Shown one piece after another: positions 18,722-23,052 of a DNA stretch of 64,000 bases (positions are counted from its first letter, which is position 1; each line of letters begins with the position of its first letter). The position numbers and the translations under genes were made by a program. Source of the stretch: Rhizophagus irregularis (Eukaryota); assembly GCF_026210795.1 (NCBI RefSeq), contig NC_089435.1, positions 3,224,001 to 3,288,000 of the forward strand, given 5' to 3'. The notes beneath the pieces were generated by a model that worked only from the letters and a program-made list of their open reading frames with translations, was not told where the DNA came from and made no database searches.

Positions 18722-21706
18722 TTTTGTACGTTGTTCGAAGCGTATCCTGCTGAAAGAAATCGACCGGTCACGAGGAGTCATCCTTATGCAAAGACCAAAG
18801 AAGAGAAAGAAGATCCTCCTATTATGACTGATGTTGCTGTTGAACCGACCGTAAGAATGGAAGAAATTCGACCAACAGGGAGTACCGAATCTGTGCAAGG
18901 GAATGTACAAAGAATAGTCCAACCTACCATCTCCACAGTTCAACCTACTCCAATCCGACCGAAGAAAAAAATGGTAGCCCGAAAGAGGCCACTACAAAAA
19001 CCTCAACCATCTATTGCAGCCCACATTCAACCGTATAATATTGTTGCCGATTTGCAACAGCAACGAGCGAATATTTCGTTCGGACAGTTGTTCCAGATTT
19101 CGCCTAAATTACGAAGTGACGTCGGAAAGAGTATACGAAAACCGGGTACCCGAACAACTAAGTTAGCTGCCCAATTTTCTGATCAAGATAATCCGAATGC
19201 GACGGCCTTATATTGTGACGCTAAAGTAAAAGGACAAGAGATCCCTTTGATTCTCGATAGCGGGGCAGCTGGAAGCATTGTTTCATGCCGACTATTAAAT
19301 GACCTTGGAATAGCTATCGATCGGCCTTCGACCACTTTGATGATTAACGTTAACGGAGAACGAAAACGGCCTTTAGGAGAAGTACTTAACTTTCCCATTA
19401 CTATTAAAGGAGTGACCATCCCAGTTGATGTGGTGGTCACCGATGCTATGACCTATAGTGCGATTGTTGGAAACGATTGGTTATCGAAAGTAAAAGCTAA
19501 TATTGATTATGAAACTGCCAACATGCTCATCCACTGGGAAGGAAAAGACATTGAAGTTCTGATCGAATATTTAGAAATACCAATGGAAAGACGGAGGAAA
19601 CAAGAGGAGACAAATCGAAAAGGAGAAGAAGAGGAGGAAGATATGAGTGAAGAAGAAGAGGAGACAGAGGAAGAATACGAGGAAGAAGACCTTAACGAAA
19701 AAGTATTCTGTCATTTTAAAGTAAAACAAAGGCCTTCCCCGCGCATCGAACAGAATTTTTCGCTCCAATTGACCTGCCGATTTCAAGAAGTTGTAATCGA
19801 CGGAATTTACCCCAAGGAAAATTTTGTATTAACCAAAGGAGGAGTCTATTTAGACAAGTCTTTCTATCTATGGACCTATTTCGCTCGACTAAATGAACAG
19901 TTTCAAAGAAAGCCACCCAAACGAGCGACCTGGACATATGACTGGAAAGGGCCTACTGCCCGATGTTGGTGTGGTGACCGATTAGTTTCACCAAGCGATT
20001 CCTGCTCCCGATGTTATGAAGAATTAACTAACTACATTACTGTACAACGGTTATCGCCAAGAATCGTCGCAGAAATCAGTTCCGATTTCGAGAACCGAAA
20101 TCTGGATCCTGACAATTTAGTACAAGATGCAATGCCGAGCGAAGTACAGTTAGAAGAAGTAGTTGACGTCGCTAATGAACATGATCGACAACTCTGCTTC
20201 TATTGCAAAAAGAAAGATCCTGACGAATGGAAACGCCAGAACGAGGTCCCTTTACACTTCGGACATGCCGAACTCACTCAAGAATGGGACGCCAAATTAT
20301 TTGAGTTACCAATGGGAGATTTGACGAAGGAACAGAAAACGAACCTTGTAGACCTTCTGCAACAGTACCGACATTTGTTTGCGTGGGATGCAACTCAGTT
20401 AGGTCGGACTGATCTTGTGCAACATACGATTGACGTTGGAAATGCTACTCCCATTAAAAAACGATGGTATCGAACCTCAAGAATGGAAAGAGATTTTATC
20501 GCTGGTGAAATTGACCGAATGTTGCAACAAAATTTGATTGAAAAGTCACGAGGACCCTGGGCTTTTCCGGTAGTTTTGGTTCGTAAGAAGAATGGAAAGC
20601 TTCGATTTTGTGTTGACTATCGTCCGTTAAACAAAGTGACCAAACGGGACGAATATCCTTTACCACGCATCGATGACATGTTGGATTCGCTTGGAGGATC
20701 CGCCTGGTTTACCTCGTTGGACCTGGCCAGCGGTTATTGGCAGGTAGAAATGAACCCTAAGGATAGGGAAAAGACCGCCTTCATTACCCAGTTCGGCACT
20801 TTCCAATTTACTGTAATGCCGTTTGGGCTATGTAACGCACCCGCTACTTTCCAACGTCTGATGGATGAGGTGCTTCATGACGAACTATGGAAATTCGTCG
20901 TTGTATATTTGGACGATTTGAATATCTATTCCCGAACGTTTGACGAACACCTCCAGCATTTACGAAAAATATTCGACCGGTTGAGGGATGCAGGGCTTAA
21001 ATTAAATCCCGAAAAGTGCAAGTTTGCTTCTACCGAATTAGCTTTCCTTGGACATGTTATCAGCAAGGATGGAATCCGTACTGATCCTGGAAAAATTAGT
21101 AAAGTCAAGGACTTCCCGCGACCAACGAACTTGACGCAATTACGTGGATTTTTAGGATTAGCCTCGTACTACCGACGATTTATTAAAGATTTTTCAAAAA
21201 TCGCCAATCCGCTAAATAAACTATTGAAAAAGAACGTCCCGTTTAATTGGACCAATGCGCAACAACAGGCGTTTGAATATTTGAAGAACTGTCTCATTTC
21301 TTCTCCCATTCTTACGTATCCTCAATGGAACCGACCTTTTATTCTGTTTACCGACGCGTCTACGTTTGCCTTGGGAGCTGTGTTATCGCAAAAGGACGAA
21401 GACGGTAACGAACGGGTTGTTGCGTATGCTAGTCGCTCCTTACTACCCGCTGAAAAGAACTACACCGCTACTGAACTGGAATGTTTGGCCGCTGTTTGGG
21501 CCATTGGAAAATTTCATCATTATCTGCACGGAAGCCACTTTTCGCTTATTACTGACCACTCTGCGCTTTGTCATCTATTTAATATGACGACTCCAAACGG
21601 AAGATTGGCCCGTTGGGTCATGAAACTACAATCGTACGATTTTGATACTATTCATCGCGCCGGAAAAAGACACTCTAACGTAGATAGCTTATCGCGCATC
21701 CGATAG
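18662..21706 (+). CDS. pol: Pol part 1: aspartic protease - reverse transcriptase - RNase H, ending without integrase
   Basis: LILDSGA and IVGNDWL (PR); LRFCVDYR, LDLASGYWQ, MPFGLCNAP, YLDD (RT); FTDAS, ELECLA, ITDH, NVDSLSR (RH); TAG at 21704-21706. Confidence 0.95.
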   Translation, partial: FKLEGASFEGKGAKPEQNPSFCTLFEAYPAERNRPVTRSHPYAKTKEEKEDPPIMTDVAVEPTVRMEEIRPTGSTESVQGNVQRIVQPTISTVQPTPIRPKKKMVARKRPLQKPQPSIAAHIQPYNIVADLQQQRANISFGQLFQISPKLRSDVGKSIRKPGTRTTKLAAQFSDQDNPNATALYCDAKVKGQEIPLILDSGAAGSIVSCRLLNDLGIAIDRPSTTLMINVNGERKRPLGEVLNFPITIKGVTIPVDVVVTDAMTYSAIVGNDWLSKVKANIDYETANMLIHWEGKDIEVLIEYLEIPMERRRKQEETNRKGEEEEEDMSEEEEETEEEYEEEDLNEKVFCHFKVKQRPSPRIEQNFSLQLTCRFQEVVIDGIYPKENFVLTKGGVYLDKSFYLWTYFARLNEQFQRKPPKRATWTYDWKGPTARCWCGDRLVSPSDSCSRCYEELTNYITVQRLSPRIVAEISSDFENRNLDPDNLVQDAMPSEVQLEEVVDVANEHDRQLCFYCKKKDPDEWKRQNEVPLHFGHAELTQEWDAKLFELPMGDLTKEQKTNLVDLLQQYRHLFAWDATQLGRTDLVQHTIDVGNATPIKKRWYRTSRMERDFIAGEIDRMLQQNLIEKSRGPWAFPVVLVRKKNGKLRFCVDYRPLNKVTKRDEYPLPRIDDMLDSLGGSAWFTSLDLASGYWQVEMNPKDREKTAFITQFGTFQFTVMPFGLCNAPATFQRLMDEVLHDELWKFVVVYLDDLNIYSRTFDEHLQHLRKIFDRLRDAGLKLNPEKCKFASTELAFLGHVISKDGIRTDPGKISKVKDFPRPTNLTQLRGFLGLASYYRRFIKDFSKIANPLNKLLKKNVPFNWTNAQQQAFEYLKNCLISSPILTYPQWNRPFILFTDASTFALGAVLSQKDEDGNERVVAYASRSLLPAEKNYTATELECLAAVWAIGKFHHYLHGSHFSLITDHSALCHLFNMTTPNGRLARWVMKLQSYDFDTIHRAGKRHSNVDSLSRIR

Positions 21707-21792
21707 AAGTAAAATCTTTTTCCAAACAATACCCGGGACACACGCATTTTTTGATTTTGATTTTCGGATTACCCTATTGATTTAACCCAGCC

Positions 21793-23052
21793 ATGGATAC
21801 GGATACATACTACCGATTGATACGATACTTGGATGACTTAACGCTACCTGCAGACTTCGATACTACTCAATTAAGGAATTTTAAGAATAAAGCCCGCAGT
21901 TATATAATAAAGAATGGCATATTATACCGACGAAATATAAGAAATCCTCAACGACCGATGCGAGTGATCAAAAAGAATGAAATGGAAATAATATTGCGTG
22001 GCTTTCATGATGATCCACTCGCTGGACATTTTGGATTCAATGAAACTTTTCGCGCAATAAAGGAAAAGTATTTTTGGCCCCAGATGGGCGACGACATCAA
22101 AGCTTATGTACAAGCATGTGATACTTGTCAAAGAAGGAAGCGGCCGATCAAAACCGAACCTCTTCACCCTATTAAAGTGGGTCAACCTTTCGACCGGATT
22201 GGGATGGACATCGTGGGACCCCTACCATTGACCAAGAAAGGCAATCAGTATATTGTAGTAGCCACCGAATATCTGACAAAGTGGCCAGAAGCACGTGCTC
22301 TTCCGGACGCAAAGGCTACTTCGGTAGTCTCGTTTTTCTACGAAGATATTGTTTGCCGCCACGGGTGCCCCAAGGAATTGTTAACCGACCAAGGGACACA
22401 CTTCGTTAACGAGATGCTCGATTCGTTGTGTAAACGCCTTGGTATAACGCACCGATTGTCTGTTGCCTATCATCCACAGACGAATGGTCTCGTAGAAAGG
22501 TTTAATCGGACCCTTTGTGAACTTTTAGCGAAATATTGTATAGAAAGAAAAGATGATTGGGATTTATTCATCCCTTCGGCTTTGTTTGCCTATCGAACCA
22601 TGCGTCAAAACACTACCCGTTATGAACCTTTTTACCTCACCTATGGGCGAGACGCAGTATTGCCGATCGAACTGGAAGTTCCAACTTATCCTTTTGAGGA
22701 TAGATCCGATCGAGGCTTTGAAGATTTATATTTCCGACGATTAGGTCAGCTAGCCGGAAACTTGATTGATGATCGACAGCAAGCAAATGAGAATATTCAA
22801 CATGCGCAAAAACGGCAAGTAGAACGACATAACAAACAAATTAAGGAACACCGGTACCAAATTGGTGAAAAGGTCCTATTACGCAACTTTAGAGCCAAGA
22901 AACTCGACTCAAAGTGGCATGGCCCTTATTACATTCATGATGTGAGACCAAACGGAACTTACAAGTTAAGGACCTTAGAGGGAAAACTTCGGAAAAAAGT
23001 TGTCCACGCAGACCAGATTCGCTCATATTATGAAAGAACGATTACTAATTAA
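21793..23052 (+). CDS. Retroviral-type integrase encoded as a separate ORF
   Basis: HHCC (H..PLAGH...CDTC), D-D-E (GMDIVG, LTDQG, LVERFN), GPY/F motif (WHGPY); gccATGg start context; no chromodomain. Confidence 0.93.
   Translation: MDTDTYYRLIRYLDDLTLPADFDTTQLRNFKNKARSYIIKNGILYRRNIRNPQRPMRVIKKNEMEIILRGFHDDPLAGHFGFNETFRAIKEKYFWPQMGDDIKAYVQACDTCQRRKRPIKTEPLHPIKVGQPFDRIGMDIVGPLPLTKKGNQYIVVATEYLTKWPEARALPDAKATSVVSFFYEDIVCRHGCPKELLTDQGTHFVNEMLDSLCKRLGITHRLSVAYHPQTNGLVERFNRTLCELLAKYCIERKDDWDLFIPSALFAYRTMRQNTTRYEPFYLTYGRDAVLPIELEVPTYPFEDRSDRGFEDLYFRRLGQLAGNLIDDRQQANENIQHAQKRQVERHNKQIKEHRYQIGEKVLLRNFRAKKLDSKWHGPYYIHDVRPNGTYKLRTLEGKLRKKVVHADQIRSYYERTITN

Follow-up and report, generated by a model that had tools for sequence, protein, structure and literature searches.

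A separate integrase gene in a Ty3/gypsy-type element of Rhizophagus irregularis, possibly translated by reinitiation after Pol

The stretch analysed here, referred to throughout as the window, comprises 64,000 nucleotides of Rhizophagus irregularis contig NC_089435.1 (positions 3,224,001 to 3,288,000, forward strand) and carries, at window positions 16161-24481, an intact Ty3/gypsy-type element with a TTAT duplication and long terminal repeats (LTRs) of 713 nt that differ at 1 of 713 sites. Its pol frame encodes protease, reverse transcriptase (RT) and RNase H and then stops; the integrase follows as a gene of its own and is itself followed by a further open reading frame (ORF), ORF4 (Table 1). 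When Pol is aligned with the RT of Ty3 (4ol8), the RT-RNase H part covers the full length (E 1.9e-102), and the Pol stop lies 2 residues past the position matching the Ty3 RT end (residue 475 of the 4ol8 chain), which we take to be close to the usual protease cut between RT and integrase.

Pol ends in DSLSRIR and a TAG, and the integrase begins in a different frame, 86 ATG-free nucleotides further on, at an ATG in strong context (gccATGg). The integrase frame is closed upstream by a TGA at 21778-21780, after which it reads F-N-P-A-M, and the sequence TTTAACCCAG ends at 21790. Readthrough to the integrase was rejected because a second stop stands two codons past the Pol TAG in the same frame, and a single frameshift into the integrase frame because it runs into the TGA at 21778. 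An earlier note on this DNA had described the same arrangement, with an RNase H ending in DSLSRIR-TAG, an 86-nt spacer and no fusion by readthrough or a single frameshift, and all its junction coordinates were found in the sequence except one: it placed the nearest upstream GT at 21680, whereas the nearest GT is at 21709, within the spacer. This GT and the AG at 21790 delimit a possible 82-nt intron, excision of which would leave stop and ATG 4 nt apart and unfused. The integrase is almost certainly a separate gene in this element.

Relatives were taken from protein clusters and contigs, and the DNA comparison was made on the best 80 of 568 metagenome stretches recovered by core integrase motifs; these loci (L numbers) are related to one another, so that the counts given here do not represent independent events. 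None of the 52 metagenome loci showing RNase H upstream carries a fused Pol-integrase, and an ATG lies within 3 nt of the integrase start position in 70 of the 74 loci covering that position. The 49 loci with both landmarks form, together with the window, 46 families (below 90% DNA identity). Their gaps are distributed over the three phases (11, 17 and 21) and the spacer ranges from -20 to more than 400 nt, with 6 overlaps or gaps of at most 2 nt, 35 gaps of 15-210 nt and 8 longer ones. The six tight junctions comprise two TAATG, two stop-NN-ATG and overlaps of -8 and -20, and tight and long junctions occur within one subclade (support 97*). Closer to the window, Pol ends in DSLSRIR in four R. 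irregularis Pol models and a Logan protein (P0241, P0369, P0374, P0378, P0379), sibling integrases start with MDT(D/N)TYYR (P0361-P0363, P0365), and R. irregularis is the annotated source of cluster members sharing 98-99.8% identity with the integrase. The comparison with siblings proposed in the earlier note thus bore it out: Pol end and integrase start are kept, and no fused sibling was found.

Among the best 120 stand-alone integrase homologues (46-100% identity), 91 reach 390 aa or more; in 72 of these the first query column holds Met, with D, E or N next, and the other 19 are called from a later start. As such a search is blind to fusions, three controls were used, namely the DNA loci above, a reciprocal RT-RNase H search and a search among longer proteins. 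In the reciprocal search, 63 of the 72 listed proteins with an RT at least 58% identical end within 20 residues past RNase H (some of them may be cut off by a contig edge), 3 run on further but contain no integrase, and 6 include one; these six are all Rhizophagus clarus gene models, in which the end of RNase H and the start of the integrase are missing. The nearest true fusion among longer proteins was P0124 (44% integrase identity), with RT, RNase H, integrase and ORF4 in a single frame; the other fused proteins mostly show 32-41% integrase identity. Named hosts are R. irregularis, R. clarus, Entrophospora and Cetraspora, the remaining loci being mostly soil or sediment contigs, and a viral contig collection gave 13 pattern matches and no relatives. 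Some Pol relatives without integrase carry a dUTPase or NUDIX domain (P0295, P0298, P0300, P0304, P0313, P0330, P0352, P0356). That the window merely holds a decayed copy of an ordinary Pol gene can be practically dismissed: a few fused relatives such as P0124 do exist, but the LTRs are nearly identical, the siblings keep the split junction, and the 46 families are split alike.

The start of the integrase is under evident constraint. A purine occupies position -3 in 63 of 68 integrase starts (A in 52), as against 244 of 417 internal integrase ATGs, and G occupies +4 in 68 of 71 starts against 124 of 417 internal ATGs, a difference confounded with the Asp or Glu second residue. Spacers of 15-210 nt contain 13 ATGs where 39 are expected from composition, and 30 of 36 contain none. 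In the 13 closest spacers (window, L001, L002, L004-L012 and L014; the set excludes L040, which is a near-copy of L012 and carries one ATG, at -16) there is no ATG against 7.6 in dinucleotide shuffles, only 1 of 300 shuffles being as low, and these spacers are no more structured than shuffles (z -0.9 to 2.3). The split, the integrase ATG and its context are conserved far beyond chance, which the acceptor-like signal is not, and the integrase ATG is evidently met by a scanning ribosome.

We give a probability of about 0.5 to the reading that the integrase is translated from the full-length RNA by reinitiation after Pol. Of the two routes named in the earlier note, a spliced mRNA or reinitiation, this is the one that fits better; the splice site is not borne out, its AG not being conserved. 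A few ribosomes would frameshift from gag into pol; past the Pol stop a fraction of 40S subunits would stay bound and scan the 86 nt of unstructured RNA to gccATGg, and AUGs close before the Pol stop would have been purged because they would capture restarting ribosomes. Integrase output would thereby be coupled to Pol output with neither a covalent link nor a protease cut, the new integrase would enter the particle in cis, via the RNA or RT, and ORF4 would probably be reached likewise after the integrase stop. This reading is preferred because 6 of 49 Pol-integrase junctions are of the TAATG, stop-NN-ATG or short-overlap kind and ATGA, TGATG and short gaps are likewise met between integrase and ORF4, because in three loci with a long gap a short ORF terminates 1-2 nt upstream of the ATG, and because the tight-junction loci retain upstream ATGs able to intercept scanning from a nearby cap. 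The latter are out of frame, have A at -3 and lie 27-40 nt upstream of the integrase ATG, so that a capped subgenomic RNA in those loci would need a very short leader to avoid them. Precedents, in the parts of the source consulted, are LINE-1 ORF2 across a 63-nt spacer, SART1, and the stop-restart of victoriviruses and hypoviruses, and reinitiation in cauliflower mosaic virus (CaMV) spans a few to 700 nt (PMC5972666).

Several observations weigh against reinitiation. An AUG-free spacer and a strong start context are equally compatible with a capped subgenomic RNA. Among the loci of the window's lineage, out-of-frame ATGs are missing from the final 60 nt of pol as well (0 against 8.0 expected), an ATG at the NxDxL motif being present in 0 of 13 of these loci and in 27 of 28 elsewhere; an AUG-free zone that extends into RNase H would be required by a transcript with its 5' end 30-60 nt ahead of the stop. 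Backward capture explains this loss only partly, because L047 and L074, with spacers of 125-136 nt, retain an ATG 26 nt before the stop. The eight spacers longer than 210 nt are not depleted of AUGs (115 against 88 expected), with the caveat that four of them (L029, L032, L039, L058), judged by eye, resemble decayed Pol tails. No UGGGA occurs in the last 100 nt of pol (21600-21706), and local folding, a model that leaves out pseudoknots, gave no stable fold before the Pol stop. Reinitiation following a long ORF is inefficient, and ORF4 output would take a frameshift and two restarts. Work on Ty1 and Ty3, in the sections available to us, suggests that integrase functions poorly apart from RT, and integrase so supplied gave no rescue of cDNA synthesis (PMC5371799); because of this failure, particle entry of the integrase is left unexplained by reinitiation. 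From the anatomy it would follow that the integrase needs its own way into particles.

One sister lineage has, 0-32 nt upstream of the integrase ATG, a 37-nt hairpin whose internal loop measures 12 nt; 27 of 80 loci carry it (for example L028:596-632), and one more matched weakly. The structure was derived with RNAalifold and the model built on 22 of the 27 loci. Of the alignment cells, 96% pair and 9 of 12 pairs show compensatory changes; none of 500 shuffles equalled this, and slid registers reached at most 56% pairing. Rfam searches on 14 loci gave three weak matches, none at the motif, and the model run against the window element with filters off gave a best E of 0.35, with no match in the spacer. 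The hairpin lineage has a Pol whose extension of 215-343 aa beyond RNase H includes both an acidic region and a Cys/His-rich domain (L027, at 4348-5163, L030, L034, L036, L056, L072, L073, L079 and L022).

The most serious rival, for the window's lineage, is an internal promoter giving a capped subgenomic RNA for the integrase (and ORF4) that starts in the last 20-25 RNase H codons or in the spacer; it is so regarded because the AUG-free zone begins inside RNase H and the spacer holds sense-strand motifs, and we nevertheless consider it unlikely. In the 13 closest loci that zone spans about 148-173 nt upstream of the integrase ATG, and synonymous identity peaks at 0.62 in the last 20 RNase H codons, against 0.36-0.55 in the other 29 bins. 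The strand-specific motifs TAACGG (7 of 13 spacers, 0.5 expected) and CCCAAC (8 of 13, 0.6 expected) presumably resemble Myb-type DNA sites, the CpG observed/expected ratio is 1.19-1.26 across the 200 nt before the ATG, and a promoter would be insensitive to the length and frame of the spacer. The two motifs, however, occur only 3-40 nt before the ATG, where a promoter leaves no leader; TATA is not enriched, CpG ratios of 1.15-1.42 are found in other bins as well, and scans of CpG, TATA and local folding revealed neither a clear promoter nor a clear structure. Nor does such an RNA need the overlaps recurring at two junctions, TAATG or ATGA, and the well-placed ATGs upstream of the tight junctions would stand in its way. 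Internal ribosome entry, IRES-like or protein-assisted, at the A/U-rich spacer here and at the hairpin in the sister lineage is improbable. The invariable position and compensated pairs of the hairpin and the confinement of the spacer motifs to the sense strand would suit it, but the window and most loci have no hairpin, and AUG depletion starts at the Pol stop, the nearest ATG lying upstream of it in 30 of 36 cases, as coupling predicts.

Splicing, whether from an LTR or leader donor to the AG at 21790, through the intron GT21709-AG21790, or by a joint restoring the fusion, we hold to be slightly more improbable still. The window does offer a CAG (21788-21790), a T-rich tract and branch-like words (TTGAT, TTAAC), there are donor-like GTs in the LTR and leader, and six R. 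clarus gene models connect RNase H with integrase. The likeness of the spacer end to a 3' splice site, on which the earlier note had drawn, does not extend to relatives: an AG lies within 20 nt of the ATG in only 1 of the 13 closest spacers, that of the window, and 5 of 13 have no AG; the window is also the only one with an internal GT..AG pair. Of the 44 loci without the hairpin, 10 have a YAG no more than 20 nt from the ATG, and the CAG of the hairpin loci is part of the stem and reads CGG, with a compensating change, in two of them. Any GT donor in the final 400 nt of pol costs at least 8 codons, including that of a conserved Asp at 21683, which aligns with the ADAISR motif of Ty3 and is, we assume, a catalytic RNase H residue; a splice restoring the fusion, which the earlier note had named as the result that would overturn it, is accordingly not available, as no GT-AG joint leaves RNase H intact. 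In all six joined R. clarus models the RNase H terminus is missing along with the initial residues of the integrase, as would be expected of invented introns. From three poly(A) RNA runs, of which about a quarter was covered in each case, no read mapped to 16946-23431; a fourth run yielded none whatever, and the runs bear on neither expression nor splicing. Four contig sets, whose RNA status is a guess, hold no GT-AG joint; in these, an X7 contig (depth 4.3) crosses the spacer unspliced and an X12 contig runs through the element with no gap. The route to the integrase may differ between sublineages. The spacers of L047 and L074 are about 80% pyrimidine, with YAG sites, and upstream ATGs are kept; this sublineage may use a promoter or splice route.

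In a quick integrase tree (LG+G4, 128 rows) all 58 split rows fell into one group of 67 rows (SH-aLRT 83, not starred), which also includes 6 long-branch fused rows and 3 gene models. The main subgroups of an RT-RNase H tree (82 rows) match those of the integrase tree, with 5 fused rows interspersed. A single split clade was not rejected (p-AU 0.84 and 0.69) in reduced sets of 57 and 49 rows, from which gene models and near-copies had been thinned; the trees allow one origin of the split, rather than show it. Capture of a Ginger1 transposase as the source of the integrase was not supported, since the RT and integrase trees share their main groups and the Ginger-like rows lie outside the split group: three Ginger1-type rows form their own clade beside it in the integrase tree.

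Table 1. Features of the element in the window.
Feature	Positions	Strand	Description
5' LTR	16161..16873	+	TG...CA, 713 nt; TTAT target-site duplication just before; 1 mismatch with 3' LTR
Primer binding site-like sequence	16877..16895	+	begins TGG, 3 nt past LTR; from sequence only
gag	16914..18671	+	capsid PF03732, zinc knuckle PF00098; 233-aa N-terminal extension
Predicted -1 frameshift signal	18662..18740	+	slippery T-TTA-AAC with downstream stem (-17.2 kcal/mol); putative function
pol frame	18581..21706	+	protease, RT, RNase H; stop TAG 21704-21706; no integrase
Last 20 RNase H codons	21647..21706	+	no out-of-frame AUG; synonymous conservation raised in the window's lineage
Spacer	21707..21792	+	86 nt, AUG-free, G-poor, unstructured; lineage motifs GGATTACCC, TTGATT, AACCCA
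Stand-alone integrase	21793..23052	+	419 aa; own start codon (ATG, strong context); zinc domain of H2C2 type, DDE core, GPY motif
Integrase-ORF4 gap	23053..23114	+	62 nt, AUG-free
ORF4	23115..23732	+	205 aa; helical family common to the clade; no match to a known family or fold
Purine tract AGGGGG	23760..23765	+	short, 5' of 3' LTR
3' LTR	23769..24481	+	TTAT directly after

By its LTRs, 4-bp duplication, gag, predicted -1 frameshift, domain order (protease, RT, RNase H, integrase), Ty3-like RT and GPY motif, the element resembles Ty3 and other Metaviridae, from which it differs in having the integrase as a separate gene, followed by an ORF4 of no known family. The ICTV profile for Metaviridae places integrase inside pol (PMC7879559), and because its pol lacks integrase we file the element as Ty3/gypsy-like by descent and not as a canonical member; the TGG-starting site and a 6-nt purine run, both recognised by sequence only, may correspond to the primer-binding site and polypurine tract of the family. 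In LINE-1 ORF2 and SART1 too, a long second ORF on a retroelement RNA follows either a short spacer, of 63 nt in LINE-1, or overlapping stop and start codons (PMC5972666, in the part consulted), but these are non-LTR elements in which restart yields an RT/endonuclease after a Gag-like ORF, where here it would yield integrase after Pol. The adjacent or overlapping stops and starts of victoriviruses, hypoviruses and caliciviruses have counterparts in 6 of 49 Pol-integrase and several integrase-ORF4 junctions of the clade, whereas in the window the gap measures 86 nt, and neither UGGGA nor a stable local fold was found upstream. CaMV, with its transactivator TAV, shares a related RT (8r0s, our third match), close consecutive ORFs, tolerance of gap length and a last ORF before the terminal repeat; caulimoviruses, however, have no integrase, and ORF4 showed no similarity to TAV in Pfam, PDB or BFVD searches, nor to any Pfam family or searched fold.

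Ginger1 has a stand-alone Gypsy-type integrase with GPY/F and a YPYY-type N-terminus (PMC2836005, in part), and the Ginger1-like P0126 is 42% identical to our integrase and starts at the same position; yet Ginger1 has terminal inverted repeats, no RT, and OTU or Ulp1 tails, whereas the window element has direct LTRs, an RT and no such Pfam domain. DIRS-1, an LTR-like RT element, has its integration enzyme in an ORF of its own (PMC5006619, in part), but this is a tyrosine recombinase, and the frames overlap and the termini are different. Unlike env or the pol of foamy viruses, which are made from spliced subgenomic messages, the integrase ORF is not preceded by a conserved 3' splice site. Literature searches, at the level of listings and abstract openings, and the portions covered of PMC3248453, PMC10508981, PMC5006619, PMC11943222, PMC7192593, PMC2836005, bioRxiv 2021.03.30.436303 and PMC12440569 contained no account of an LTR element whose DDE integrase is encoded by a separate gene; this literature lies outside Repbase, most subscription papers and supplements. 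Such an element is apparently undescribed in print, and a Repbase consensus entry may already show the layout.

A polyprotein link is the textbook route by which integrase is dosed and carried into the particle, and here it has been dropped in a widespread clade with young, intact copies. The clade offers a natural system for studying integrase packaging without Gag or Pol, as well as natural variants of restart after a long ORF in which the gap varies between -20 and about 200 nt. Annotation is affected as well, since such elements appear broken to pipelines and gene finders make up introns that join Pol and integrase. The window and its clade contribute a junction form with a long spacer, the purge of AUGs, the hairpin, ORF4 and the fused relatives; hairpin and ORF4 are uncharacterised parts that can be tested directly. 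More broadly, an old LTR clade might be polycistronic, making Gag-Pol, integrase and ORF4 by a chain of restarts on one RNA, with ORF4 as a restart or packaging factor, the hairpin as its RNA site in one lineage and the freed integrase as an intermediate toward Ginger1, a picture that we regard as quite doubtful.

ORF4 follows the integrase across the clade, with 140-205 aa in the 22 loci aligned and 558 cluster representatives at E up to 0.001. Its predicted fold is mostly helical and confident (pLDDT 81); no match was found in Pfam, Atlas, PDB sequences, Foldseek searches of PDB, or BFVD. In P0124 it is joined to the integrase C-terminus, and elsewhere the integrase-ORF4 junctions span a range like that of the Pol-integrase junctions (including two ATGA and a TGATG).

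The N-terminal extension of Gag (16914-17612) contains a CxxCH word and has homologues in L002, L007, L009, L016 and L068; its first ATG has a weak context, and the second (17613) a strong one. A 32-nt LTR segment (16571-16602 and 24179-24210), located within a small hairpin, turns up between unrelated flanking sequences in poly(A) reads and contigs, which suggests a motif common to another repeat family. Downstream of the element, translations indicate a kinase and Sel1-repeat gene (24705-28979), presumably of the expanded mycorrhizal type.

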